Shown: positions 10,425 to 47,459 of the stretch, piece by piece
Position numbering within the stretch: position 1 is the stretch's first letter
Layout: every line of letters starts with the position of its first letter
From: Trypanosoma brucei
Lineage: Eukaryota
Assembly (NCBI GenBank): GCA_000002445.1
Contig: CM000208.1
Location: forward strand, 2,336,001-2,400,000
Direction of reading: 5' to 3'
Length of the DNA stretch: 64,000 bases
Program-made: the position numbers and the translations under genes
The notes under the pieces: model-generated
The model's database searches: none
The model's input: only the letters and a program-made list of their open reading frames with translations
Told to the model about the DNA's origin: nothing

Positions 10425-10497
10425 CACCGATTCTTCAACTTCTCGTAGGGCGTGTTTCACTCCAGATCGCCTTAAACTCTTGTTTCCCGGTCCACAG
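10425..10497 (+). promoter_or_regulatory. polypyrimidine tracts plus AG dinucleotides, candidate trans-splice acceptor region for the CDS at 10504
   Basis: ttcttcaacttctcgtag ... ctcttgtttcccggtccacag, ending 7 nt before the ATG. Confidence 0.4.
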
Positions 10498-10503
10498 GTA
10501 AAA

Positions 10504-13437
10504 ATGGAGCAGGCACAGCGGCCGCCGGACAATGTGATGGGTGTTATGCGTTGTGCTGTTGAGCGGGGTCGCAAGTCATTCGTTGCGTATAAGAAACGTT
10601 TTTGGGTTGTTGATGAGACACAAGGCCGTTTAGAGGTGTACAAAAATGATCAAGAGCCGGTACCGCTAGATAGGTTCTGCGCATCAGAGGTGCGTGGAGT
10701 CATTATATCTGGTGACAGACAGAACAAGTTTTATGGCCTTGTACTGCAACTTCGGCGTGGCCAAAACATCAAACTCCGACTTAGCTCTCTGGCGGAACGG
10801 GATAGGTGGTATGCCGCAATCACTCGTCTCATCGAACGATGCTCCACGTACAATCGTGACTATAATCTGTTGCGCGTCGCGCAACGGAGAACGCTGGTGG
10901 CAGGGCGTTTATTAGGGGTGAACATTACTTTGGCCGTTGCACGATTAAGTGATATCCCTGATGATCTTCTTCAGTACCTGGTGGAAGCCGTTGATGTTGC
11001 CATCGACACAATCTCCGCGGCGGTCCATGCATACGGTGGTGATGTGGAGGTGCCACGGCGGTACACGATCACAGTAGAAGCGGGCCAGGATCGTATTGAT
11101 ACGGGCCCACAGTATGACCCAACTACAGGTAGTCTCCTGCTAAACGTGTGGATTTCACGAGATGTAACAGGTAACGTTCGCTTCAATGTTGCGGATTCGG
11201 CGGAAGTGATGAAAATGACGCAGTCACACGTGTGGCGTGAACCGCGGATCGAGGGGTGGATCACAACAAATCCAAGTTGCGTTGCTGTTTGCCGTGAAAT
11301 TGGTGAAATGCTCGGAAGCAGGAACTTTTCATTTTCATTCCAGTGGGGCCAAAACTTACGGGATACGGAGAGGGTTGAACAATATTTGCATCAGTACGTT
11401 CATGAGGATTTTTTGCGTGCAATTCATCGGAATATCGTCGAGGTAGTGGAGGATTTCAGACGCTCTGATACAGACGCTGACGATTCGTGCTATCTCAAGT
11501 ACATTGGGGACTTTGTTTCTGGAATAGCTATTGTTCTGGATGAATCAACTGTAAATGCGGGGAAGCCACCTCTACTGCGTGTAACAACTACGGTTGAGTA
11601 CCAGCGGCGTTGCAGGCACGCAGTGGTGCTGAAGTCGAAATACTTTGAAGTGTACCGGACGCAGCGTGTGCTGACCAAGTCATTGAGGTTGCAACTTGTA
11701 GAAGTTATTCTCCTAGCAGACCTGAGCAAGCGGCTGAGTGACAGTAAAACTGCCCTAACTCAAGCCATTGGAGGCAACGAATGTGTGCGTATTATATGGG
11801 TTAACTTATTTCGCTCGTTTGCAAGCGTTGGCGCTCAGCTACCTCAATTTAAGTTATCTGATGTGGTCACTTCCATCACTAACACTTATTTGACCCGTCT
11901 AGAAAGCCTACAGCAGTTGGGGTCACTTGAGCTACCGTACGCTGGAGTGAAACCGCTTTACGCATCACTTTTTTCCAATGTCACCACTCTTGTCGTTGAT
12001 TTTGTGCCATTTAAGGAGGACGACGTTTCCCAACTGCCGGAGCCAAAGGTTCACGACGGTATATTGACGGATTACATTGTCTGCTGCACAGCCGCTCAAC
12101 AACGTGCTATGATGAATTTCATTTGTTCGCGAAGAGGTGTACCTCAGATTGATCGAGCCTATGTGCTGTTGAATGGTCTTTTTGCTTTTCCTTCGATGCC
12201 CGCAACTACCTTCAAGGAGTGGTGCGAGAAACAAGCATTTAATGGCGTGGAGGGATACAGTGGGGCGAATGACGATGATTCTAGCTCCCGCTCTTCTGGA
12301 GGAAGTGATGACTTGGGCGATGCTGTGGCGTTTGAGCGCAACGCGGAGGCACAAGTGCTCGATCTGCACCGTGTTGTGAGTACAATCTACGACTCGCAAG
12401 GTGCTGCCGTACACCTTAAGATCGGTGCGGATTCTATCCGTGATGCTATCGAAGCCCTCGAACAGGCATTTGACGGACGTCAGATTCGTAAGCACGATTT
12501 GGTGCGTGTACTTACAGCCAATCTACGTCGACTACGGGCTATTTATAGTCATGCTGTTGGAGGTGAAGTGATGACTCGTCTCGACTTAGATGCGGCAGGA
12601 CGGCTTCTTCGTTCTCTCTGTGAATACAAGGAAAGTGAACAAGGCCTTGATGAGTTGCTTCAGCGATGTGCCCAACAACGACAGCAGGCCGTGAGGCTGG
12701 GAAGCAGTGACTCGGTGCCCCAAGAAAGAAGATCGCTGTCCTGCAGCGCATCGGAAAGTATCTACGATTTTCAATGTGTATCGCAAGTGGCGCTAAACTA
12801 TGTTCTACCACGGGAGGTGAAGCTAGCCCGTAAAGCGTGGCGCGTCGGTCTTGTTGCGGGTCTTCAGGATGTTGGAAAAACGCTGATCCTCAACTCTCTT
12901 CACGGTGTCATACAACCGACATTTCCAACAATTGGACTTTCCCAGAGAGTAATCGCTTTTGAGGAGTGGGTGTTTGCGATGCACGAACTCGGTGGTCGAG
13001 AGAGTTTTCGTGAGAACTGGCGCTACTACGTTGAACGCATGGAGGAGGTCGATTTCTTGTTCTTTGTCGTAGACAGTATGAACAAACGCGCCTTCAAATA
13101 TGCCTCCAATTATCTGCGTGAGATTACCAATTATTTCGTGAATACTCCCCTTGTTGTGTTGTTCAACAATGTCCGTGTAGGCGTTAGAGGCGTTTCCTTG
13201 TTGGATCACTTGTCAGGTGCTGTTAAACTGGACAAAATAAAAAAACGGCAGCCAGAGAGATTCATCATCGTTGGGACATGTGATATTACTGTGGTGAGCT
13301 CGTCGCACCGCACAATTCCTCCGACACTTCTTGAAACTATGCAGCGTCTTGGGGAATATCTACGCCAAGTGTCACCACCGGAGCGAACGCCCAGCGAACC
13401 AAAGAAGGGATCTGGAGTTGAATACACAACGACATAG
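10504..13437 (+). CDS. PH-domain protein with C-terminal divergent Arf/Arl-like (pseudo)GTPase domain
   Basis: The ORF-track start at 10480 is TTG; the first ATG is 10504. The N-terminus (VMRCAVERGRKSFVAYKKRFWVVDETQGRLEVYKND...DRWYAAITRLI) looks like a PH domain. The C-terminus aligns to Arf1: GLQDVGKT (P-loop) ... PTIG ... HELGGR (the Arf WDVGGQ, Gln replaced by Arg) ... FVVDS ... VVLFNNVRV (the Arf NKQD replaced by NNVR). Confidence 0.6.
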   Translation: MEQAQRPPDNVMGVMRCAVERGRKSFVAYKKRFWVVDETQGRLEVYKNDQEPVPLDRFCASEVRGVIISGDRQNKFYGLVLQLRRGQNIKLRLSSLAERDRWYAAITRLIERCSTYNRDYNLLRVAQRRTLVAGRLLGVNITLAVARLSDIPDDLLQYLVEAVDVAIDTISAAVHAYGGDVEVPRRYTITVEAGQDRIDTGPQYDPTTGSLLLNVWISRDVTGNVRFNVADSAEVMKMTQSHVWREPRIEGWITTNPSCVAVCREIGEMLGSRNFSFSFQWGQNLRDTERVEQYLHQYVHEDFLRAIHRNIVEVVEDFRRSDTDADDSCYLKYIGDFVSGIAIVLDESTVNAGKPPLLRVTTTVEYQRRCRHAVVLKSKYFEVYRTQRVLTKSLRLQLVEVILLADLSKRLSDSKTALTQAIGGNECVRIIWVNLFRSFASVGAQLPQFKLSDVVTSITNTYLTRLESLQQLGSLELPYAGVKPLYASLFSNVTTLVVDFVPFKEDDVSQLPEPKVHDGILTDYIVCCTAAQQRAMMNFICSRRGVPQIDRAYVLLNGLFAFPSMPATTFKEWCEKQAFNGVEGYSGANDDDSSSRSSGGSDDLGDAVAFERNAEAQVLDLHRVVSTIYDSQGAAVHLKIGADSIRDAIEALEQAFDGRQIRKHDLVRVLTANLRRLRAIYSHAVGGEVMTRLDLDAAGRLLRSLCEYKESEQGLDELLQRCAQQRQQAVRLGSSDSVPQERRSLSCSASESIYDFQCVSQVALNYVLPREVKLARKAWRVGLVAGLQDVGKTLILNSLHGVIQPTFPTIGLSQRVIAFEEWVFAMHELGGRESFRENWRYYVERMEEVDFLFFVVDSMNKRAFKYASNYLREITNYFVNTPLVVLFNNVRVGVRGVSLLDHLSGAVKLDKIKKRQPERFIIVGTCDITVVSSSHRTIPPTLLETMQRLGEYLRQVSPPERTPSEPKKGSGVEYTTT

Positions 13438-28846: not shown

Positions 28847-30559
28847 ATGTATCACTACGAGTACGATGACGACCACTCAACCAACCTCTCGCAAGCAATT
28901 AACGCCAAGTTGATTACGCGTAGGGGTATAACAACAGACAGCCCAGATCCCATTACTCCGGTTTTTTCGTCGACCGCGCCAACTCGCTCATCAACTGGAC
29001 TAACGACTGAATGGATACGACATCAAAAGCTTAGCGGAAGGGCTGTACCCCCGACCCTTGATACTCTAAAGGGGACAGGTAGTGGAAGGAAATACAAGAG
29101 TGTCACAAATTCCCAAGAAAACAATGTGGACCCAAACAGCATTAACCGCGGCACTTTGCTAGTTAACTCATCCTACTCGGCACCTTCACCAAGATATAAC
29201 CACGTCTCTTCAGTGGTAAAAAAGCTGATAGAAGGGAGAATAACGCCCCAAGAGGCGCGTCGTGCAAGTTCCTCTCGTCGTGGCAGCTCACGAACCACCC
29301 GACTGGTTGCCAGTAGCCGATTCGCTCCTGCCGATAGGCCATCAAGCGCCCCGAAACGTCTTCCGATGGGCAGCGGTAGGACTGGTGGGCTGCTGCCACG
29401 TCTAAGAATATCGTCAACACCACACATACCCGTCCGCACGCAGCAATGGATCCCTTCAAACTCAGCAAAACCAGCGACGGCGGAATGCCAAAAAAACATA
29501 TCGCCACGAGGTCCGGCAACCACGCAGTCATCGGGCAGCTCACGAAGGTTAAACATGTATCAAAGGGTGCCACTATCACGACAATGCGACTCTTTTCCGA
29601 GGAAACCAACAACTGTGGAGGAAAAACCGAAGCCCCCTCAGCCATTGTTCAGTCGGGTTCCGAGATGTGCGGCGGATATTCCAGATCATCGGAAGCCCTC
29701 TCCACGACACGATGTACAGTCAAGAAGGCCGTACGTGCCGCAGTCAGGACGTGAGGTACCGAAAGCGCATAAGACACCACTCTCCAGGGCATCCAGTTCG
29801 CCGAAATACAACAGTGCCCGGAGGAGGTACGTGCAGGACAAACAAACCAACGAAACATCTACTATCAGCGGAAGGCAACGAGTTCCTGTGAGTGCAGTAG
29901 ATGTAGGAAGCAGGGAGAAGGCTAACGTCAGCGAAAGGCAACGAGTTCCTGTAAGTGCAGTAGATGTAGGAAGCAGGGAGAAGGCTAACGTCACTGAAAG
30001 GCAACGAGTTCCTGTGAGTGCAGTAGATGTAGGAAGCAGGGAGAAGGCTAACGTCACTGAAAGGCAACGAGTTCCTGTAAGTGCAGTAGATGTAGGAAGC
30101 AGGGAGAAGGCTAACGTCACTGAAAGGCAACGAGTTCCTGTGAGTGCAGTAGATGTAGGAAGCAGGGAGAAGGCTAACGTCAGCGAAAGGCAACGAGTTC
30201 CTGTAAGTGCAGTAGATGTAGGAAGCAGGGAGAAGGCTAACGTCACTGAAAGGCAACGAGTTCCTGTGAGTGCAGTAGATGTAGGAAGTAAGGAGCAAGA
30301 AGACGGACGAGTCACCGCAATTTCTTCGGACTCGAGAGGCGCATTAAGTCAGACAAAGGCGATGGAGACACAAAAAGTCGTCGATCCGTTGTCAACAAAA
30401 GATATAATTTCCCACGACGCGGCTGGTCGTCCCAAACATAAATCTCTTAATGGTGGTTTAGTGATACCACAGGTGGAGGGGATTAAGTCATTACTGCTTT
30501 TTGATATCAAACCACCGAAACTGAGCGAGACTGGCGCTGTTGCCGCCACTGTCGGTTGA
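28847..30559 (+). CDS. basic Ser/Pro/Arg-rich protein containing 7 tandem 21-aa repeats (ERQRVPVSAVDVGSREKANVS/T)
   Basis: ATG at 28847. The composition looks intrinsically disordered. A 63-nt tandem array lies in frame at 29866-30306. The minus-strand ORFs 29686..30315 and 29744..30298 are mirror artefacts of that array. Confidence 0.6.
   Translation: MYHYEYDDDHSTNLSQAINAKLITRRGITTDSPDPITPVFSSTAPTRSSTGLTTEWIRHQKLSGRAVPPTLDTLKGTGSGRKYKSVTNSQENNVDPNSINRGTLLVNSSYSAPSPRYNHVSSVVKKLIEGRITPQEARRASSSRRGSSRTTRLVASSRFAPADRPSSAPKRLPMGSGRTGGLLPRLRISSTPHIPVRTQQWIPSNSAKPATAECQKNISPRGPATTQSSGSSRRLNMYQRVPLSRQCDSFPRKPTTVEEKPKPPQPLFSRVPRCAADIPDHRKPSPRHDVQSRRPYVPQSGREVPKAHKTPLSRASSSPKYNSARRRYVQDKQTNETSTISGRQRVPVSAVDVGSREKANVSERQRVPVSAVDVGSREKANVTERQRVPVSAVDVGSREKANVTERQRVPVSAVDVGSREKANVTERQRVPVSAVDVGSREKANVSERQRVPVSAVDVGSREKANVTERQRVPVSAVDVGSKEQEDGRVTAISSDSRGALSQTKAMETQKVVDPLSTKDIISHDAAGRPKHKSLNGGLVIPQVEGIKSLLLFDIKPPKLSETGAVAATVG
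29866..30306 (+). repeat. 63-nt tandem repeat, 7 copies (last degenerate), near-identical, in frame within CDS 28847..30559
   Basis: Unit cagcgaaaggcaacgagttcctgt[g/a]agtgcagtagatgtaggaagcagggagaaggctaacgt begins at 29866, 29929, 29992, 30055, 30118, 30181 and 30244. The synonymous gtg/gta position alternates strictly between units, and agc/act recurs at units 1 and 5. Confidence 0.9.
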
Positions 30560-35051: not shown

Positions 35052-38000
35052 ATGGACGAAGAAACCACATTTCCACCTCAACAACAAGGGAAAGCGCTGA
35101 TCTCAGAGCTACGGAGTGTAGTTAATGACTACAGAAATAGGAAAACCGTGGAGGCTCGCGAAAAAATTATAGCAGCGATGGACAACACTTGTGCCTCTCT
35201 CTGCTTTGGTGATGAGGGGTTCATCCGCAACTTGAACCCTTGCAGTTTGGCGTCTGCTTTAGTTGCTGTCCTAACAAGTACTCTCGCAACTGATTACCCG
35301 GAGGTCCAATGCCTCGCGGTGCAGGCGCTGGCACTTGTGGCAGATCTTGTGCCACGAGGTGGTTTTGCTGTTGTAGCTGCAAGGGGTGTACAACCACTCC
35401 TGCTCCTCCTAAAGGAGCTGGATGCGTCAGAAAGCACGACACTGGAGGAGTTGTTGAGGTGTTTGACAAATCTCGCTTTTGAGGCTCACGAGCAGTTAAT
35501 GCAACACCAGGCATTTTCTGTTATTGTTTCCATTGAAAGGCGATTGGAAACTCATCGACTGCGTATGATGTGCCTCAAGTGTCTGTCACATCTTCTCACA
35601 TTGACCTCACCGGAAGAATGGAACATATATCTGTCCAAACCGTGTAGCTCGTTGATGGCAACATTTCATGAGGCGGTGACAAGACTTATGAAAGATGATT
35701 GTGCAGGTGATCGTCTGTCAAAAGACGACGAGGCTTATCTGCTGCGACTCCTCGAGTGTGTTGCATTAACGTTTGATAGGGTGCTGTGTTCGGCGAAAAT
35801 GATCGACAGGAACAGCAGGATGGTAGAGCAGCTTGTTTCGTCTCTCGTAGTGGTTATTAATGGAGCTGCTTCCATGGGTTCGCGCGGCACCGCCCTGCGT
35901 AATGCTGCGTGTTCGCCCCTTCTTACCCTTCTGTTCACAGACCCGGCTGTTACAGTGAGGATATTTCTTAAATGCCACGTGTTAGATTCTATATACAGTA
36001 ACATTTCTGGGCTACTCGAAAAGAGGCCGAAACAGGCTTCTTACAATGGCGCAGCCGTGATCTCTGCTCTCATGGAAGAGGATCTGACGGCCGTGCCGAG
36101 CGTAGCTGAGGAACAAAAGGTCATTCCCCTGCTAGAGTTTCTTCTAGTAGTTATGCCACCCTCATGCACTGCAAGTGATTGCGATTATTACACCACCTTA
36201 CCACACTATATTTGGCAGTGGGAAGATGACTTTCATAACTGGTGTGACTGCACCGAAGACTTAAGCAAACGACTAGAGGGGGAGTACATAAAACAGCGGC
36301 GACTCTCAGGATACACAGTTTTTGAAGTTTCTAATGCAACATCTACACTGAAGATTAACTTTTCTACCATGCGATACAGAAGCAGCGAAAGCCTGCACTA
36401 CCCTCACAACATTAGCCGTCGTCCATCTATTGCCGGATATATTTACCGGCGACCCATACGATGCCAGTGCGACGTTAAAGTTACACCGAACTCTTCATTG
36501 CCCGTCGAGGTGGCGTTGGGCAGGTTGGTTTCTCTCGGGGCAGGCACCACGACGGTTCTCGACGGTGAACCCGCCGTGGTGTCGGCCGGGGTACCGACGG
36601 GAAATGCGCATAGCAACGAACAATCTTATTGTGAAAGTGCATCATATAGTTTTGGCAACATCGCTGCTCCCTCGTCTTCGAACCAACCTTCAAGGGGTCA
36701 CGGGGCACATAATGGTGGTGTTGTGGAGGAGCGTGGGAGCCATTGCTGTTGTGTCAGCGTTTTGAGGTCACTGTTTCGTAAGTTGAAGGGTTCAGGACGT
36801 TCAACCGCAGTTCCCGAGGCCGGAAAATATGGTGCAGGGTCAGCGCTTACATCCTACGAAGTACTCGACGATGTTAGAGTGGAGCTTCTGCGCTGTGCTG
36901 CAACTCGTTCCAATTTCTTGCAGGAGCGGATGATCTACAGAATAATCCAACAGTATCTTCCAATTCTTATGCGTGTTGTGGATAGCACAGCCAATCTTAT
37001 CATCGTACGCCACTGTTCAGTACTGATTTTGCGCTGCGTTGACTTGGTGATAGGTTACTTTCGCTCAGGTGGGAGGGACCAGGGTCAACCTACCAGGACT
37101 CTCTGGGGCTTGTTTTGTGCCTTGGGCCCAAGTCTTGCGACGTCATTGTCCTATCTGACAACTTCCAGCACGACTCACGGATCGCTGACGCTATCGGCAG
37201 CACCCTTCAGGGAATTCCGGTGCGGTAGTGCGTTTGTGCTCGCGTTGTCAGCTTTAGACGTGACAGTTGGAACCCGGTTACCAGCAATGAATCTTGCTTG
37301 TGAAACTCAGCTGACCTCATTGAGTGCCCTGATGATGCTTTGCAGTCTCTGCCCCATAGGCGTGAAGGCGCTGACGAAGCAGCAGTCGCTCGCGTTATTG
37401 TGGAAACTGGAAAGGATTACTGGTCCCGCTGAACGCAGTTCACAAGGTGGCGTCCACCTGTTGCTTGAAGGACATAGAGTCCCGCCGTGTCCCTTTCACA
37501 CGAAGGCACTGCAAATTGAGGAACTGCGCAGAACGCTGGTTCAGCAGCTTTGTTCGTTACTGTGGACAAATGCAAGGGCGGTAGATCAAATGTTGCCCTT
37601 CAAAAAATGTTGTTTGGACATATCTGGAGACGATCAACAGGATAGTCAGCTTGGGGATTCCGTCGCCATGGGTTCACCTGAGGGGAGTGTGTCACCGAGT
37701 GCCAGTTGCACGAGCCTCACGTATATTTCTTCCAGTGGCGATCTGGACGGTGACACACCGCGTTCTCGCAGCACTCAGGTGATTAAACGATTAACACGGA
37801 TCAATGAGTACATGAAAGAGCACAGTAATGATCTCCCCGTGTTCTTGTATGATCAGCCGGAGCTGCTGAAGGATCTCGCTAGTGCTTTGCGCAGTGCTGA
37901 TGTAAGGGAGGTGATTGGTTCAAAGATGAATGAGGTCTTTTCCCAACTGATAAAGAGTTTGCTCCGCACCATCTGCAAGTACACGGGAATTGGCAGACTA

Positions 38001-40658
38001 GAGGAACCCCGCGCCGTAGAGCGTCAGTATTCGCGGTTTCAACGCCGTACCCGACGCAACAGGACTATGTTGATGGTGGTTGACTACCTGTGGACGCCTC
38101 TTCGGGTGAATCTTGTTAATACCCCTGTTCAAGCAGGTAAGAAGAGGAGTTTGTCTAAATTCTTTCGCTTGCAGAAAGACTCCACCAATGCGGCTGATGC
38201 GGGCTCACCAAATGCTCAGGTGAGGGAATCAGTGTTAAGCGTACTCCCAACGACTCCATTGAGTTACATTGCAAAGTATATTATAATGCGGTTAAATGAA
38301 GCTTGCAACAACACGTGTGACCCCAAATCAGAGGACGCGGAGCAGCAGCGGCAGCAAGAATTAGCTGAGGAAAGTAATTTCGGGGCGACGTTAGCCCACC
38401 AGGAGGCAGCCGACACTCCAGTTGGTGTCAATGGCGGCGTTGGTGAAGAAACTGCACTGGGAGGCAACGTGATAAACTTTTTAAACCGCAGAGAGTCTAG
38501 GTTGTCGGATGCTTCGGATGCCGACGACGAGGAAAGCGTGACTTCTGGTGATGCATCTGAGTTTTCGGAAGGCCGCGACGGGGATTACTTAAGTGAACAT
38601 GTTCTCAGCACTGTGTCGGCAACCGTTTCTATGGTGCCTCAAGCGCCCTCAAATATTTGCAGTGGGCCTTTAGGTGGACTGAGGGCCTCACAAGTTGAAG
38701 GTAGCACTTCCACCACAATTACCATCGACAATGTTGTCTTCTTCTGCGGGGGCAAGCCCGTAACAGACTTAAGCATATCCGTTTTAGACCTTTGTGGGAG
38801 TTCCTATTGTCAAGCTTCTGGTTGGTCCGATCTCCACCAGAGTGATTCCGACGAGAATTGCGGTGATAATGCACCTGTACGACACACTAGTGGTGAACGA
38901 CTTCACTACTTGATGAAAAATGTGCTTTCACTGTGGTCATCTGTACATACAATTAACTATTCCATTGTAGGAATGCGTGCCAATGAAGAGCGACGCGGTA
39001 CAGATGGCGAAGAGGTGTTGGATATGAATGAAAATTCCCCGGTCGAAGTTTTTTCTCGTTTGTCGTACTCCCCCAGAGGAACCCCATTTTTGTGGGCTGC
39101 GGCGGACCTTCTGAATGAAATGGGCCAGTTAGTGCGCGCTGCAGGTGGTGCTCTCTCCATGGATGATCCACTGGTGTCGAGCGCTTTGTTCCATGAATTC
39201 TACAATCACTTTGGTGTGTTGATGTTGCCCGCACTCGCGTATGGTATTATCCACGCCTACCTGGCGGATCAGCAGGACCGTTATCTCATTAGCTCCGTCC
39301 TTTGGAAGTACCCACAAACTTTCAGCTACGAAATTAGGCGGACACTGCTGCATTTGCTACTTTCAGTCCGACGTATACACACGCCAGCAATAGTTAAGTT
39401 GAAAGAATGGGCGTCAGGCTCAAGTCCCATACCTCCTGTCCAGGGTTTAGAATGGCTACGGCCCGATTTGAACATGCGTGGAACTTACAGGGTTCGAGTG
39501 CAGAGGTTTAACATTTTTGAGAGCGGCGCACGTGTGCTTCGTCGTCATGCAATGTGTCCACTTACGCTAAGTGTGGAGTTTGAGAATGAGCTTGGTGTTG
39601 GGGCGGGACCTGCAGTGGAGTTCTATAATTTATTGGCGAGGAAATTTCAAGACGTGCAACTTCACATGTGGCGCACAGAGGAATTCACCGATGAATCTGC
39701 TAAAACCGCGCGGCGCGTTCAACTCCCGCTGTTCCCTTCACTATTTCAGGATGACGAATCGCTTTCCAATTTTGAGCTCCTCGGGATGTTAGTGGGACGG
39801 GTGCTAATGGAGGAACGTGTGGTGGACCTTCCGCTGAGTGAGTGCTTTCTTCGTGGCATTCTAGGAGACTTGGATGACACTAACCGGCTGCCATATATCG
39901 ATCCCCAACTCGATAAGCAGCTGGATTCATTGCTTAAACTCACGGCCAATGAACTAGAGGAATGCGAACTAATGTTCGTAATTCAGCACGGGGACGCGGA
40001 GCACAACGGGGGTATTGTAGAACTCTGCCCTAACGGGGCCACAACTCAGGTTTCTGCTATGAATGTCAATGAGTATGTTCAGGAGGTGCGGCGGTACTAT
40101 TCGAAGACGGCCCTCGCACGGCCCGTCTCGCATTTCATCCAGGGACTCCGGTATACACTTATTCCTTACCATCTGCGACTCTTTGATGCCAGAGAGCTCC
40201 AGCTTGTCATATCGGGACCCGAAGGGAAGATATGGGAAAGTGCAGGAGACCTTCTGACCGTCATTACAACTAACCACGGTTATGACAAAAACTCCCTGGT
40301 TGTGGCTTATTTTGTGGAAGTGGTTAGCAGCTGGGATGTTTCTCTACAGCGGTCCTTCCTGCGCTTTGTGACGGGCTCCACTCGCATTCCCATAGGAGGA
40401 CTGCGACCCCCCATAACAGTGGTACGTCGTTCGGTGGAGGTGGCTCCCGGAGAGGCCACAAACCAGTTGGATACTACAAACAACTTTCTGATGGACGATC
40501 GAGCTGAGGTGTTACAAAACCTAATGGACGCCTCACTTCCTACCGTGAACACATGTGCGCACTACCTTAAACTTCCAAACTATAGTTCAAAGAAAATACT
40601 GGAGGAGAGGCTGAAATTGGCCATAACAGAGGGACAGGGTACATTCTCGCTAACGTAG
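35052..40658 (+). CDS. HECT-type E3 ubiquitin ligase with armadillo-like repeats and a WWE domain (TRIP12/UFD4-like), 1868 aa
   Basis: The C-terminal HECT domain ends ...LPTVNTCAHYLKLPNYSSKKILEERLKLAITEGQGTFSLT, with the catalytic Cys in the TC context about 35 residues from the C-terminus. An internal WWE-like segment reads YIWQWEDDFHNWCDCTEDLSKRLEGEYIKQRRLSGYTVFE. The N-terminus is ARM/HEAT-like. Confidence 0.75.
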   Translation: MDEETTFPPQQQGKALISELRSVVNDYRNRKTVEAREKIIAAMDNTCASLCFGDEGFIRNLNPCSLASALVAVLTSTLATDYPEVQCLAVQALALVADLVPRGGFAVVAARGVQPLLLLLKELDASESTTLEELLRCLTNLAFEAHEQLMQHQAFSVIVSIERRLETHRLRMMCLKCLSHLLTLTSPEEWNIYLSKPCSSLMATFHEAVTRLMKDDCAGDRLSKDDEAYLLRLLECVALTFDRVLCSAKMIDRNSRMVEQLVSSLVVVINGAASMGSRGTALRNAACSPLLTLLFTDPAVTVRIFLKCHVLDSIYSNISGLLEKRPKQASYNGAAVISALMEEDLTAVPSVAEEQKVIPLLEFLLVVMPPSCTASDCDYYTTLPHYIWQWEDDFHNWCDCTEDLSKRLEGEYIKQRRLSGYTVFEVSNATSTLKINFSTMRYRSSESLHYPHNISRRPSIAGYIYRRPIRCQCDVKVTPNSSLPVEVALGRLVSLGAGTTTVLDGEPAVVSAGVPTGNAHSNEQSYCESASYSFGNIAAPSSSNQPSRGHGAHNGGVVEERGSHCCCVSVLRSLFRKLKGSGRSTAVPEAGKYGAGSALTSYEVLDDVRVELLRCAATRSNFLQERMIYRIIQQYLPILMRVVDSTANLIIVRHCSVLILRCVDLVIGYFRSGGRDQGQPTRTLWGLFCALGPSLATSLSYLTTSSTTHGSLTLSAAPFREFRCGSAFVLALSALDVTVGTRLPAMNLACETQLTSLSALMMLCSLCPIGVKALTKQQSLALLWKLERITGPAERSSQGGVHLLLEGHRVPPCPFHTKALQIEELRRTLVQQLCSLLWTNARAVDQMLPFKKCCLDISGDDQQDSQLGDSVAMGSPEGSVSPSASCTSLTYISSSGDLDGDTPRSRSTQVIKRLTRINEYMKEHSNDLPVFLYDQPELLKDLASALRSADVREVIGSKMNEVFSQLIKSLLRTICKYTGIGRLEEPRAVERQYSRFQRRTRRNRTMLMVVDYLWTPLRVNLVNTPVQAGKKRSLSKFFRLQKDSTNAADAGSPNAQVRESVLSVLPTTPLSYIAKYIIMRLNEACNNTCDPKSEDAEQQRQQELAEESNFGATLAHQEAADTPVGVNGGVGEETALGGNVINFLNRRESRLSDASDADDEESVTSGDASEFSEGRDGDYLSEHVLSTVSATVSMVPQAPSNICSGPLGGLRASQVEGSTSTTITIDNVVFFCGGKPVTDLSISVLDLCGSSYCQASGWSDLHQSDSDENCGDNAPVRHTSGERLHYLMKNVLSLWSSVHTINYSIVGMRANEERRGTDGEEVLDMNENSPVEVFSRLSYSPRGTPFLWAAADLLNEMGQLVRAAGGALSMDDPLVSSALFHEFYNHFGVLMLPALAYGIIHAYLADQQDRYLISSVLWKYPQTFSYEIRRTLLHLLLSVRRIHTPAIVKLKEWASGSSPIPPVQGLEWLRPDLNMRGTYRVRVQRFNIFESGARVLRRHAMCPLTLSVEFENELGVGAGPAVEFYNLLARKFQDVQLHMWRTEEFTDESAKTARRVQLPLFPSLFQDDESLSNFELLGMLVGRVLMEERVVDLPLSECFLRGILGDLDDTNRLPYIDPQLDKQLDSLLKLTANELEECELMFVIQHGDAEHNGGIVELCPNGATTQVSAMNVNEYVQEVRRYYSKTALARPVSHFIQGLRYTLIPYHLRLFDARELQLVISGPEGKIWESAGDLLTVITTNHGYDKNSLVVAYFVEVVSSWDVSLQRSFLRFVTGSTRIPIGGLRPPITVVRRSVEVAPGEATNQLDTTNNFLMDDRAEVLQNLMDASLPTVNTCAHYLKLPNYSSKKILEERLKLAITEGQGTFSLT

Positions 40659-41235
40659 CAGGTATATGTATATGTGTGCGTGTAGTCGTCCACGAGGACA
40701 AACTACAGAAAGTTGGTATGGTGCATTATAGCTAATGTGGGGTGGAGTGAGTGCGAGTGCGATCAGCTGGAGGGACAGGAAAAGTAAGAATGAGGAAGAA
40801 TACAAGTATGGGAGCATGTGTATCAACTTATTGGGGTGATGTGTTGTTGTCATAGTGCCGTTATTTTGCTTGTTCTGGTTTCGATTGGGATATGTAAGTG
40901 ACACATCATTTGGGAAACCGCACGTGAAACTGTGATTTCATCTCCAATTTTTTTTTCTGGACATCACTATTCAGCGCGTGAGCGTCATCCCGCTCCCGCC
41001 ACAGTCCTTTCTCTCTCCCTCTTTGTTTCTTCACAGCCGTTTCTGTCAATTAGCTCCCAGCGGTACGTCGATGGTGTGTTATTTACTCTCCATGGCTTCC
41101 TTTGTGATTAACACAATCACCAGAAATGCTTTGTTTTTGTCTTTGGTCCGACGTTGGTGGGAAATGGAAGGGAACGTTGGCGCCATGACCTCTGCTACTT
41201 AAATAGTATTGTTTTCCTTTTTTTTTTCCTCCTTT

Positions 41236-41264
41236 TGTGTGTGTGTGTGCATGTATGTATGTGT
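41236..41264. repeat. (TG)n/(ATGT)n microsatellite
   Basis: tgtgtgtgtgtgtgcatgtatgtatgtg seen directly in the long spacer. Confidence 0.85.
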
Positions 41265-41961
41265 TTTCTTTGCCAGATTGTATTATTCATGTGTAGGAGT
41301 GAAGATAATGCGGGTATTGTGTTATACCAGCTATCCGCTACAGGATGTGCGAAAAGTAAGTGAATGGAGCGAGTAGCGGTGAGGATTGTTGTGCCGAGTT
41401 TGAGCTTTTTATTATTGTTATTATTATTGTTATTAACTCTGTGAGAACTCACCCCTTTTCCTCCCTCGGGTTAACGTAAAGAGGAGAGAAGCAACCAGCA
41501 ACCCACAGTGTCGTGGGATGTGAAGTTCGAGAAGTGAATTGAAGGGGAAAGATACAAGGCCCTCAACTCCCGTTCACTGAGCAGAACAAAGCAGGGAAGA
41601 TACAACACCTCCATAAGGTTATTTTGATGCTAAACCTATTGTTCCTGTTGTGTTGGATTTGAAGTTTAGCAACTTTGAGTAGTACCAATGAATGAGTTCA
41701 GACTTTTCATCTTGTAATTGTTGTCGCTCGTTTTAATGATGTTGTTTAGTGCAACTCTTCACAAGGTGGTGGAGGTTGAAAGGTGAGCGTGTAAAAATGG
41801 TAACAGTGCCCAAATTCTCAATTGTGTATGAATGTAGGTTGTGTTCTGTCGATGTGAATCAGCTGCCAGCAAACGGAAACGTGGTGTATTCCAAGGGTTA
41901 GAGCAGCCTGGAAAAAAAAAATTCAAAAAAAAAAAAGAAGAACGTTGGTGTGTCTTCAACT

Positions 41962-42025
41962 ATATGTAAATAAATAAATATAAATAAATTAATTAATAAA
42001 TATATATATATATATATATATATAT
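41962..42025. repeat. (TAAA)n followed by (TA)12 microsatellite
   Basis: taaataaataaatataaataaattaattaataaa then tatatatatatatatatatatatat. Confidence 0.9.
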
Positions 42026-42453
42026 GCATGTGTGTTTATGTGCAAACTTGTACCTACAGGTGCATGCACACACAAACATATGTGCGACATTTGCACATTG
42101 TTTAGCGGTAGAGGGGATGGAGAAAAGAAGAAATGCAAGAAAAGAAAAAGAGAAAAAGAGAAAAGCACAAATGGAAACAAGTAATTAATAAAAAGAAAAT
42201 GACGATACTACACTTTGTGCCCATTCACTGTTGTTGGATTTGCTTTGAAGTGACGAAGGCAATTGGTGCGTGAAGTCCCCTTTGGTCTTGAGGTGACTGC
42301 TCTCACCCACAAGATCTGTTTTTTTTTTTTCTTCTGACTCTCTCCTTCTTATTTCCCTTTTTTCTCTTTGCTTTCTTCGGGTAATCTCGTTTTTTTCCTT
42401 TTTTTTTCTTCTTTGTTGGAAACAACAAATCACGGAAACGAAGTCAACGGCAT

Positions 42454-42487
42454 TAATAATAATAAGTATAATAATTATTATTATTAA

Positions 42488-42533
<46 letters not shown>

Positions 42534-42540
42534 TATATAC
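42454..42540. repeat. (ATT)n microsatellite (about 24 units) followed by (AT)n
   Basis: aataataataagtataataattattattattaatattattattatt... then tatatatatatatata. Confidence 0.9.
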
Positions 42541-43036
42541 ATAAAAAAAAATCACCTGGTGTAGTATTTCCATCCCCTTTTTCTTATTTTACGAAATATT
42601 TGGTGGGTTCTGAGTTTGGAAGGAAGTGATATCAGTGACTGGTTTGTTCCCTTCTGTCCTTTTTTTTATTTTCTGTCTTTTGTTTTTTTTTTCCTTCGTC
42701 GACTATTATGTTGTCTGGAAAAGGAGTGACGAAGCGCGGAAGCATGCGATAGGACGAGGGACTTTCGGTAATCTGTTTTTTTTTTCAATCACCTGCTGTT
42801 GCTCCCTGTTATTCGACGATGGAGCAGGGAAAGTTGCGTGTGTTTGTGTCTGTAAGGAAAAAAAAGCTGTGGTAAATTCGGTTGATAAATTTCTCCTCCA
42901 TTCCGCGCGGCAGTTAACAACAATAAAAAAAAATTTTCTGCTCCTTGGGCTTTGACGCCTCAATGCTTGCGCTTCTATCTTGTATAACCACCTGTTCGCG
43001 CTGTTCAATTAAAGAAAAAAAAATGGTGGTGGTGGT

Positions 43037-43089
43037 ATTTGTTTCTCTTTCTCTTTCTTTTTCCCCCTCCACTCCCTCCCTCTTTTCAG
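43037..43089 (+). promoter_or_regulatory. polypyrimidine tract ending in CAG, candidate trans-splice acceptor for the CDS at 43516
   Basis: tttgtttctctttctctttctttttccccctccactccctccctcttttcag. Confidence 0.4.
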
Positions 43090-43515
43090 CCGCTGCACCA
43101 TCTATTGGAGTATAATAAAAGGTGAGAGTAAACACCTTCCCTTGTTTTTTTTTCTGAGCATTCCGCGTGTTCCTACATTTGTGGTTGTATATATGTACAT
43201 GCACAATGATGGTAAGATGGTTGTGCTGTTCCTTAAAGAAGGGAGGTGTCTCCACACGAATTGCTTCTTATGTAATGTTTTTAGCTGTTATTCCCCTTGT
43301 TGATGTGCTACGCATTCTGGAGTCTTTATATATCTTCGTGTTTTGTGCTATTTGCCAATGTGTAACATCTGTGTTTGCTACATCTTCTTCTTTATAAATA
43401 GTCTGGTTTCATTAGTCACAGTTTCCTCATTGAAGGGAGAGAGAGGCACTTGCAGGAGGAAGAGATAGTGACTCAGGGATTGTGTTTTTTGAAGGTGGAA
43501 TAAAGTGCTAGGAAG

Positions 43516-44571
43516 ATGCTGCTCACAAAACTTGCGCCCATGAGGTCTGCAGCACGTCACATGCCGTTACTGTGCATCCCACTTCATACCGCTCGTCACA
43601 CTGCCACTGTGGGTGCGAGCGGCGCCTCTGGGCGTGTAGGGGAGGACCACCGCCACAGTTCATTGGAAGAGACTTTACTTCATCCTCCTTTCATTGGTTC
43701 GTCTTCACGCTTCACGTATGCCTTACCTGCTTTAGACTCCGATGATATAGCGGCTTTGGAGAGGGAAACACTTAACCATCACGAACCAAACTGCTGGAAC
43801 GACTACTGCTGTGTCTCCCTTGTGAAACTGCTCCGCTGGTGTGCCGATAAGTTATTCCGTGAGCGTTACATTCACAGGGCTACAATGTTGAAAGCGATTG
43901 CGCCTGCACCGGCGATGGCTGGGGCCATCGTTGCCAACCTGCGGATGTATTTGAGGAAAAAGGACGCGACATATTTGCCAAGTGACGGCAACTTTTCGTC
44001 AGAGGTTCGAGTGCTAATGGCGCAGATGGAGTCCCACGCCGCACATGTCAATATCCTCTTGTCAATGTGCGAGATAACGACCGTTGAGCGCGTCGCCGCC
44101 GTTCTTCTTTATGGGCTTCATTATTTCATATTTACCCTTCTATTCCTCCTGTATCCGCGAATGGCGTTTCGGCTTATGGGTTACCTTAACGAGGAATCCG
44201 TAGTTATTTGGACGCACATGATAAACGACGTAGAGTTGGGGAAGATTGTTGAGCGACCAATACCTCGTGCGGCGCTTCAGTACTGGGGACTTCATCGTTT
44301 CCACCACCGCCAGAAACAACAATCTCATACAAAGAGCTATGTCACAGAAAAAGAGGAAGAGGGTAGGAGGGTCATGCATAACAATGAAGCCTCTTCTGCC
44401 AACCCCAGTGGTGACGGTGCCGCAGAGAATGGAGGGGAGGATGGAGATGTGTCGAAGCGTGGACTTACGCTGCGTTATATGCTGCTGTTATTGCGCTCGG
44501 ATGAGATGGTCTGGCGCGACTCATGCCACGCGGCTGCGGACGCTATAGACGAAATGCACGAGGTGCAATAA
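43516..44571 (+). CDS. alternative oxidase (AOX)-like protein with non-canonical di-iron motif residues
   Basis: It aligns to the AOX four-helix core: [25 protein letters not shown] against AOX [35 protein letters not shown] against [24 protein letters not shown] against [28 protein letters not shown] against RADEAHHRDVNH. The N-terminal presequence looks mitochondrial ([17 protein letters not shown]). Confidence 0.6.
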   Translation: [351 protein letters not shown]

Positions 44572-45104: not shown

Positions 45105-47459
45105 ATGACGACCCACTTGTGGGCAAATTTTGTTACATCCCTGGAGTCCCGTGGCATCTCATTTCAGCACGTGCAACACGCATCTGACCGGAGTGCCGTA
45201 ATTTCAGCGGCAGGCTTTGGGGACCCCATTAGCGTTGCTATTTTGGAGACGGAATGGATGAAGCGTTGTGCACCCACCAGCACCCAACATGCTTCACCCG
45301 TGGGCGTATCCGACAAGGGCGCATTTGCCCCTCCACCTCCTCTCCAAGCGCCACAGACTGCTGCGGCAACCGTGAGCAGTCCCACAAGGCTCGCCCCCCA
45401 GTTTTCTGACCACACGAAACTGGAAGACGTTCCCGAGGAAATTCAAGATCGTGTCATCACAGCGGAGGTACTAGCCGCAGCCGTCGGCAACGGTGGCTCG
45501 CTTTTGCAGGCATCACGGGACGGTTTCGTGGTATCGAGATATGTGCCCGTTTCGATGCGCGGCCTCTGCAAGACCATAGTTCCCATCGCAGACTCTTTCG
45601 TAGCGCTACGGAAAGTTGAACGTGCAGAGTATATGGGAAAGAGCCTTGTTGCTATGGCTCTGGGTGAAGCGGTATCAGAAATTTGCACCAGTTACGCACA
45701 CGAGATTGCAAACCTGCAGAGGTGGTCCCAAAAGAAAGCAATGCCGCTGATGGGGGTCGTCTCAGAAGTTCTTCGTGCCGGCCACCACATCGTGCGGTTG
45801 CGGCAGGTACTGCCCACAGATTCAATTCTGGAGGAAGAAGGAACACTCTCCATGGCTGGGTGGCGGTTGCTCAACCACATCCATGAACAGGCTGAAAAAC
45901 ATTCGGGAAGCAGGGAGGACGATGAATTGCTGAACTTGTTACTTAGACGAGCATCAGTACCATACCTGCGGGTGTTGCACAGGTGGGTGCACGAGGGAGT
46001 AGTTGAGGACCCGTACGGAGAGTTTTTCATATCAGACGCATCCCTCCCCACTGGAGCAGCATCCACTACCACCGCAGCACCAGTTTCTGCTGTGGCAGGT
46101 ATGAAAAAGAGTGCAGTGAGGCGCATATTTCCCCCGTGTGGCGGAGGAGGCGACGATTACGGCGAGACAGGAATGGATGATGCGCATGCCTTTGAACGGC
46201 GCTTCTCGATGAATAAGAACATGGTTCCTAATTTTATTCTCACAAACACAAAGATGGCGAAGATAGTGTTCTATACCGGCAAATACTGCTGCCTGCTGCG
46301 GGAGTACAACGGCGCTCTCCCATCGTTCGGGGAATTATCGAACCAAATACTTATATGGTCTGGTGTTGACGAGTTGCATCGGCGTATAGAGGAGTCATAT
46401 GAAATTGCGAGTGGAGAGGTGTTACAGTTGTTTCTGGGACCGCAGGTCGATCTTTTGGGGCACCTTACATCGTTGAAGAGTTATTTCTTGCACCAACGTA
46501 GCGACTGGCTGATCGATTTTTTAGACAGTGCTGAGGAACTTCTCCTGAAGTCACCTTTTCAGGTGAAGGCGCATTCCGTTCGCGTGTTACTCCAAGCAGC
46601 AATCGCTAGGTGCTGTGGGAAAGACTTGTACCATACTCTCATTGGATGCAGCTTCTCGGGCACAACTGTTGCACAAGACATTATCAACTCACACGAACGG
46701 CAGAACGACGAGTCCCCTCAACGCGCATCCACAAACGGCAGGAGGAGCGCCACGCGTATTGAGACACGTTGTTGTATAGAGCTGCTTCAACTTGAGGCTG
46801 ACCTAAAATGGCCACTCACAATGGTCATTGACCCCCCTGTTCTTGAGCAGTTCAACATCGTCTTCCGTCTTTTCACGTGGCTGAAAACCTGTGAACGGGA
46901 CGTTACCACGTCGTGGACGGGGGATACCGATTTGGATCCTCACTACCAGCGTGCATATATCATTAAGCATCAACTCATTCAGTTCATCAGGCAATTTCAG
47001 TTCTATGCAGCACATTTCGTTGTGGAGCCGCTTTGGGGTCGGATGATGAATCGGATATGCCAGGCTGATAGCATTTTCGCCGTAAATAGTGCATTGAAAG
47101 ATTTCTTCAAGGGTATCGAGCTTGGTCTGGTGCTTTCTAGCGCCACTCGTTTCCGTAGTCTCGCACGTATTCTGGAGATAGCCTCCGTTTTCAGTGAAAC
47201 AGGGAGACCAGGTGCGGCCCAGGGGCTTAGCGAGCAACGGCTGCAGGAAATATTACAGGATGTGGAAACGCAGTTTCTTAAAGCTCTTTCCGAGCTCGCT
47301 TCCCCTGTGGGAGCCGACTATCCACAACTTGTGCCGCTTTTGACGTGGATTGACTTCAGCGGCTATTACGACCGCAACGGAGTATACCGCGTGCTGTACT
47401 CCGCAAGTGCCGCTACCGAACCGGTGTCTTCCTCAGCCACGGACAGGCGAAAGCGTTGA
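45105..47459 (+). CDS. gamma-tubulin complex component (GCP/Spc97-Spc98 family; GCP2/GCP3-like)
   Basis: The length and conserved GRIP-motif regions fit the family: LNLLLRRASVPYLRVLHRWVHEGVVEDPYGEFFI (GRIP1-like) and KAHSVRVLLQAAIARC...LQLEADLKWPLTMVIDPPVLEQFNIVFRLFTWLKTCERDV...YAAHFVVEPLW (GRIP2-like). Confidence 0.7.
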   Translation: MTTHLWANFVTSLESRGISFQHVQHASDRSAVISAAGFGDPISVAILETEWMKRCAPTSTQHASPVGVSDKGAFAPPPPLQAPQTAAATVSSPTRLAPQFSDHTKLEDVPEEIQDRVITAEVLAAAVGNGGSLLQASRDGFVVSRYVPVSMRGLCKTIVPIADSFVALRKVERAEYMGKSLVAMALGEAVSEICTSYAHEIANLQRWSQKKAMPLMGVVSEVLRAGHHIVRLRQVLPTDSILEEEGTLSMAGWRLLNHIHEQAEKHSGSREDDELLNLLLRRASVPYLRVLHRWVHEGVVEDPYGEFFISDASLPTGAASTTTAAPVSAVAGMKKSAVRRIFPPCGGGGDDYGETGMDDAHAFERRFSMNKNMVPNFILTNTKMAKIVFYTGKYCCLLREYNGALPSFGELSNQILIWSGVDELHRRIEESYEIASGEVLQLFLGPQVDLLGHLTSLKSYFLHQRSDWLIDFLDSAEELLLKSPFQVKAHSVRVLLQAAIARCCGKDLYHTLIGCSFSGTTVAQDIINSHERQNDESPQRASTNGRRSATRIETRCCIELLQLEADLKWPLTMVIDPPVLEQFNIVFRLFTWLKTCERDVTTSWTGDTDLDPHYQRAYIIKHQLIQFIRQFQFYAAHFVVEPLWGRMMNRICQADSIFAVNSALKDFFKGIELGLVLSSATRFRSLARILEIASVFSETGRPGAAQGLSEQRLQEILQDVETQFLKALSELASPVGADYPQLVPLLTWIDFSGYYDRNGVYRVLYSASAATEPVSSSATDRRKR

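Follow-up and report, generated by a model that had tools for sequence, protein, structure and literature searches.

The window analysed here (the whole stretch of DNA under study, 64,000 nucleotides) contains a complete gene for a protein related to alternative oxidase (AOX), hereafter called AOX-L, which lies between the gene of a HECT ubiquitin ligase upstream and that of the gamma-tubulin complex protein GCP2 downstream (Table 1). The order HECT – AOX-L – GCP2 was found in the window and also in T. cruzi, T. c. marinkellei, T. theileri, T. melophagium and L. donovani. Among the loci that we compared, the HECT gene was located upstream of AOX-L in L002, L004, L005 and L009, and a GCP gene downstream of it in L002, L003 and L005 to L009. 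The HECT gene marks positional orthology only and has no functional link to AOX-L. All open reading frames of at least 200 residues in the window (n = 20) are on the forward strand, except for one antisense frame nested inside another, a single-strand layout that fits a trypanosomatid polycistronic unit.

Table 1. Features of AOX-L and of the flanking genes used as synteny anchors (window coordinates)
Feature	Position	Strand	Basis or remark
HECT ubiquitin ligase gene, upstream synteny anchor	35052..40658	+	Pfam
AOX-L coding sequence, complete	43516..44571	+	ATG start, TAA stop, 351 aa
N-terminal 42 residues, presequence-like	43516..43641	+	Composition: 5 Arg/Lys, 0 Asp/Glu, Ala/Ser/Thr-rich
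AOX-fold domain, residues 79-342 (N-terminal arm and long-helix bundle)	43750..44541	+	Pfam stretch, AlphaFold helices, Foldseek matches to TAO
K126 codon, at TAO iron ligand E123	43891..43893	+	Alignments; K in Trypanosoma, V/T/L in Leishmaniinae
H174-A-A-H177	44035..44046	+	H174 replaces bridging ligand E162; H177 is the retained H165
N225-E-E-S-V-V-I-W232	44188..44211	+	N225 replaces ligand E213; W232 replaces catalytic Y220
Acidic disordered α5-α6 insertion, residues 288-314	44377..44457	+	Alignment, pLDDT < 50
E330-M-V-W333	44503..44514	+	Ligand E266 retained as E330; ligand H269 replaced by W333
GCP2 (gamma-tubulin complex protein) gene, downstream synteny anchor	45105..47459	+	Pfam GCP N- and C-terminal domains

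Several other features of the window were recorded. The gap between the HECT and AOX-L genes (40659-43515) is unusually long (2.9 kb) and AT-rich, with a GC content of 0.41 for positions 42001-44000 compared to about 0.49 elsewhere, and an (ATT)17.7 microsatellite lies within it at 42474-42526; the gap is presumably made of UTR and trans-splicing sequence. A DEAD-box helicase gene also neighbours AOX-L and gave only distant sequence matches in the PDB. The 570-aa reading frame at 28847-30559 (+), to which no convincing Pfam family could be assigned, includes at 29872-30295 a 63-bp tandem repeat (6.7 copies, 96% matching) that encodes a 21-residue repeat. A 985-aa reading frame at 10480-13437 (+) has a C-terminal Arf-family GTPase (residues 780-934) as its only recognisable domain, preceded by an N-terminal extension that is unusually long for an Arf-like protein.

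The AOX-L reading frame matched the Pfam AOX family (PF01786) with a score of 189.6 bits (E = 7.6e-56, for a cut-off of 22.7 bits), its residues 79-342 aligning in a single stretch to positions 4-216 of the 216 of the profile. When PDB sequences were searched with phmmer, the T. brucei AOX (TAO, 3vv9) was the sole significant match (E = 1.3e-11), the remainder being chance matches with E > 1. No solved trypanosome complex containing AOX-L was found in this search, which gave just TAO, and membership of AOX-L in such a complex was rejected on this result. The best matches to the window protein were AOX-L proteins of Trypanosoma and Leishmania. An identical sequence was absent from the protein database, and the nearest one (99%) came from a read-archive assembly; the two genes differ by five non-synonymous and three synonymous changes, which are too few to interpret and do not by themselves show constraint. 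The annotation of alternative oxidase is carried in T. brucei by two genes, Tb927.10.7090 (TAO) and Tb927.10.9760. Because Tb927.10.9770 is named GCP2 (PMC3988969) and the reading frame that follows AOX-L in the window carries both GCP domains, the window gene is by gene order and numbering the positional orthologue of Tb927.10.9760, in agreement with an origin in the T. brucei group. The family has already been described: a preprint entitled 'Alternative oxidase in trypanosomatids' (bioRxiv 10.64898/2026.09.27.754813, September 2026) treats it as AOX-L, formerly AOX2 or TAO-like. The sequence-only observation on the window gene was read correctly and the finding itself is already known; the independent checks reported here agreed with the preprint at every point that could be tested.

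In the NCBI records of five Trypanosoma species (P0003, P0005, P0006, P0007 and P0010), the AOX-L orthologue goes under the name 'GTPase activating protein of Rab-like GTPase'. We rejected this identity, as the precomputed Pfam domains of the orthologues comprise PF01786 only. The RabGAP reported in T. cruzi (PMC3060929) was likewise rejected as a candidate, since its identifying peptide is absent from the AOX-L sequence. The name looks like a propagated misannotation. A small Arf/Ras-like GTPase gene located just after GCP2 in T. cruzi and in one environmental contig might be connected to it.

We then mapped onto AOX-L the di-iron ligands of TAO, which belong to two ExxH motifs (E123, E162, H165, E213, E266 and H269; list from PMC6213860). 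The first three motifs were placed by HMMER pairwise alignment with TAO, and all ligand positions by a MAFFT alignment of 145 family members, obtained by searching 1.84 billion representative proteins with a profile; helix α6 was also covered by the Pfam match and by a Foldseek alignment. Only two of the six ligands were kept (H177 and E330), the other four (E123, E162, E213 and H269) being gone. The TAO segment FLETVAG reads MLKAIAP in AOX-L, placing K126 at the position of E123; this position varies within AOX-L and hence is not conserved there. In the region of EAENERMHL, E162 is replaced by H174 and H165 is kept as H177, and this HxxH pair is nearly invariant across trypanosomatid AOX-L. 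YLEEEAV reads YLNEESV, with E226 and E227 retained and with N225 at the position of E213, occupied by G or A in other species. In helix α6, RADEAxH reads RSDEMVW: E266 is kept as E330, and H269 is replaced by W333 in the window protein and by F or Y in Leishmaniinae, while a histidine persists in some deep-branching environmental AOX-L. A previous sequence-only reading of this DNA had recognised an AOX-like core and had reported each of these four motifs as altered, from a LET(V/I)A glutamate changed to lysine to the altered NERMHL, LEEEA and RADEAHH; all of this was reproduced by alignment. Its estimate that at least two of the six ligands were missing understated the loss, and the contrary outcome that it had considered, a profile alignment with the full ligand set or without significant AOX similarity, was not observed.

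The substitutions extend beyond the ligands themselves. The catalytic Y220 of TAO corresponds to W232, and AOX-L has also fixed replacements at further sites where canonical AOX never or hardly ever varies (E158Q, Y198F, H206F and A216S), the Y198/H206 network being represented by F210 and F218 in the window protein. In the same MAFFT alignment, E/E/H/E at positions 123, 162, 165 and 213 and Y220 were present in 107/107 canonical AOX sequences, and E266 and H269 in nearly all of them, the exceptions being mostly truncated or gapped at those positions. Since canonical enzymes keep the full set almost without exception, the pattern of loss is neither an alignment artefact nor a matter of chance. 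The preprint reports that AOX-L lacks E123, E162, E213, Y220 and H269, losses that our alignments all located in the window protein, as well as about half of the quinone-contacting residues.

In order to compare folds, an AlphaFold2 model of AOX-L was built on 15 orthologues. Its core was confidently predicted (pLDDT 80-95 within most of the stretches 80-260 and 320-345), with helices at residues 94-113, 118-145, 160-182, 189-212, 214-240 and 319-350, and it was disordered (pLDDT < 50) at residues 1-62 and 288-314. A Foldseek search against the PDB returned 14 matches at E ≤ 0.001 (E about 1e-9), all 14 of them TAO chains, with a target-normalised TM of about 0.70 and an rmsd of 2.7 Å over about 283 columns at 19-20% identity. 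The insertion between α5 and α6 was poorly conserved and differed in length between species, being far longer in Leishmania; the same loop is described in the preprint, according to which AOX-L keeps the AOX fold and the membrane-binding surfaces, with a modelled cavity that is constricted. The AlphaFold predictions of the preprint further yielded AOX-L homodimers (ipTM 0.63-0.84).

Residues 1-62 were unconserved in sequence. The N-termini of the orthologues were all basic and poor in acidic residues. This composition agrees with the earlier suggestion of a mitochondrial presequence, which the N-terminus of AOX-L would then constitute. The most hydrophobic stretch of the protein is formed by residues 193-211, and AOX-L is probably a monotopic protein that its hydrophobic helices hold to the inner membrane on the matrix side. 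The preprint, citing proteomics, reports an enrichment of AOX-L within the integral-membrane fraction, and it gives a low expression level (about 20 TPM) in procyclic T. brucei.

A protein that has lost four of six ligands, is expressed at a low level and carries disordered insertions of variable length could be a decaying, functionless relic of an oxidase. The conservation of the gene makes this explanation extremely improbable. The reading frame was intact in every Trypanosoma and Leishmania species returned by the search, the orthologues being 59% identical in T. congolense, 48-53% in T. cruzi, T. c. marinkellei, T. rangeli, T. theileri, T. melophagium, T. conorhini and T. grayi, and 32-35% in Leishmania species. 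Across the two genera, 62 alignment columns were invariant, including columns specific to AOX-L. Nei-Gojobori estimates of dN/dS were 0.18 between T. cruzi and T. c. marinkellei (dS 0.19) and 0.22 between T. theileri and T. melophagium (dS 0.62). From these two independent species pairs, the gene is under purifying selection and is not decaying; with synteny also kept out to environmental contigs, the pseudogene explanation is effectively refuted.

The ligand-deficient sequences formed a single clade of 35 leaves in a neighbour-joining tree, apart from canonical AOX. Whole-domain distances were 0.77 between AOX-L and canonical AOX and 0.55 within either group. The tree shows monophyly and does not discriminate between an ancient duplication and an independent origin of AOX-L. 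In the tree of the preprint, AOX-L is also a lineage separate from canonical AOX and no recent duplicate of TAO, and its distribution is described as patchy and limited to kinetoplastids.

The profile search also retrieved more divergent members of the AOX-L clade (P0022 to P0035), mostly from environmental assemblies, with one from the prokinetoplastid Papus. On the contig of P0023 the order of genes is AAA-ATPase – HECT – AOX-L, while P0035 is flanked by a HECT gene and by a GCP gene; on both contigs all long domain-bearing genes are on one strand and the antisense strand has only a few short called frames. Because they share this gene order and single-strand layout, P0023 and P0035 are likely positional orthologues in free-living kinetoplastids. 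Extra genes, absent from the trypanosomatid locus, are present between HECT, AOX-L and GCP in L002 (4757-9622 and 11512-17044) and L003; those of the environmental kinetoplastid-like contig encode a 1621-aa HSP70-domain protein, a GH20 hexosaminidase and an MRJP-family protein. E123 and E213 were lost in all the divergent members, and N161 and H269 were still kept in P0023, P0025, P0027, P0032 and P0035. The retention of H269 and N161 in some divergent AOX-L suggests that the iron ligands were lost in steps.

The residues that remain in trypanosomatids raise the question of whether AOX-L is still a metalloprotein, with H174, H177 and E330 forming a remodelled mononuclear site of the 2-His-1-carboxylate type that would serve another reaction or metal or redox sensing, and with E172, E226, E227 and D329 as a possible second shell. 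Conservation speaks for such a site: H174 was found in 95% and H177 and E330 in 100% of trypanosomatid AOX-L, and E172, E226, E227, D329 and H338 were invariant as well. Moreover, E162 gave way to histidine, itself able to bind metals, and not to a hydrophobic residue filling the space, as one might expect. However, the triad is not family-wide, since deeper AOX-L branches have R, Q or A at the position of E162 and some have D or H at that of E266. In addition, the half of the site formed by E213 and H269 holds G/A/N and W/F/Y instead, the residues Y220, Y198 and H206 are lost, and the cavity is modelled as constricted in the preprint. On balance we consider a remodelled metal site unlikely. 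We regard as an equally long shot the broader proposal that a di-iron oxidase was rebuilt through H174/H177/E330 into a mononuclear-metal or ligand-sensing protein, with a new essential mitochondrial function in all trypanosomatid parasites that is absent from their hosts. If this proposal were true, the partly decayed sites of deep-branching, syntenic environmental orthologues, in which H269 and N161 are kept, would record the stepwise conversion of the di-iron site.

Another question is whether AOX-L acts on the canonical enzyme. The sequence-only reading had placed it alongside canonical TAO. This holds for a few species only, as most carriers of AOX-L (T. cruzi, T. rangeli, T. theileri and Leishmania) are devoid of AOX according to our database search and to the preprint. 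Phytomonas is a point of conflict between published sources. Orthologues of both Tb927.10.7090 and Tb927.10.9760 were reported in a high-molecular-weight native-gel band of Phytomonas serpens (PMC8312217, 2021), while the preprint assigns to Phytomonas AOX only and no AOX-L; either one of these assignments must be wrong or Phytomonas must have two canonical AOX copies. By analogy with the AdoMetDC prozyme of trypanosomes, AOX-L might regulate canonical AOX, by forming heterodimers with it or through competition for membrane or quinone sites, and heat shock does raise both mRNAs (13.6-fold for AOX and 2.1-fold for Tb927.10.9760). Against this, the carriers without AOX keep AOX-L under selection, an AOX/AOX-L heterodimer was not predicted in the preprint (ipTM 0.12-0.13), and the authors of the preprint ascribe activity differences to the architecture of the respiratory chain. 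Such a regulatory role therefore appears very unlikely to us, and the absence of AOX from most carriers implies that AOX-L fulfils its role independently of the canonical enzyme.

Altogether, we favour with good confidence the explanation that AOX-L is a nuclear-encoded, probably mitochondrial protein of the AOX fold that has no di-iron centre and neither oxidises ubiquinol nor reduces O2. The sequence-only reading had likewise suspected a pseudo-enzyme or structural paralogue unlikely to act as a ubiquinol oxidase, an opinion that the conserved fold, the loss of the ligands and of Y220 and the purifying selection support, and that the preprint shares. AOX-L is thus probably catalytically inactive, as the preprint also considers on sequence grounds. 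As H177 and E330 survive and a histidine occupies the position of E162, it may still bind some metal.

We propose that AOX-L would be imported into mitochondria through its N-terminal presequence, attach to the inner membrane on the matrix side by its hydrophobic helices, form homodimers as modelled in the preprint, and act there in a non-catalytic manner, serving as a scaffold, as a partner in interactions or as a subunit that senses lipids or quinones. A scaffolding or regulatory role would be the default explanation for a conserved dead enzyme. Several residues were invariant in AOX-L and variable in canonical AOX: the N-arm motif F59-x-G61-x-S63-x-R65-F66, W108, R115, E116, R165, V230, N237, D238 and K243; a segment T-x-M-[IV]-N-D-[IVY]-[DEV]-[LF]-[GR]-K was found at the end of helix α5. 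The AOX-L-specific conserved surfaces (F-x-G-x-S-x-R-F, W108/R115/E116 and the α5-end segment) are probably those used for this role. AOX-L is conserved among the pathogens that cause sleeping sickness, Chagas disease and leishmaniasis, and mammals lack it; a real function of the protein, if confirmed, would be of interest to mitochondrial biologists and to drug-target researchers. It also offers a clean example of an enzyme fold retained for a non-catalytic purpose. Our additions to the preprint are modest: the environmental gene order, the intermediate ligand sets, the dN/dS close to 0.2, the surface motifs that are invariant in AOX-L specifically and the HxxH…E remnant. They may help to reconstruct how the di-iron site was lost.

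Among known systems, the closest is the kinetoplastid AOX-L of bioRxiv 10.64898/2026.09.27.754813, which is the same family and by position the same gene. The replaced residues, the fold, the α5-α6 loop and the spread over Trypanosoma and Leishmania all coincide, and nothing substantive distinguishes the window gene from it. TAO (Tb927.10.7090; PDB 3VV9) belongs to the same Pfam family and shares the fold at about 19-20% identity. AOX-L retains the TAO residues R96, R118, L122, H165, E214, E215 and E266 together with the D-E motif in helix α6, and differs from TAO by the absence of four of the six iron ligands and of Y220, Y198 and H206, and by its extra disordered loop. The AdoMetDC prozyme, an analogy also drawn in the preprint, is like AOX-L a conserved trypanosome paralogue that lacks catalytic residues and is under selection. 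However, the prozyme heterodimerises with its active partner, whereas AOX-L persists in species without an AOX partner and is not predicted to form a heterodimer. Finally, the wheat 'AOX-like' isoforms (PMC6213860) are also AOX homologues in which part of the six di-iron residues and part of the cavity residues are missing, but they are recent plant paralogues from which an entire motif is absent, whereas AOX-L is an ancient separate lineage that carries point substitutions within a conserved full-length fold.
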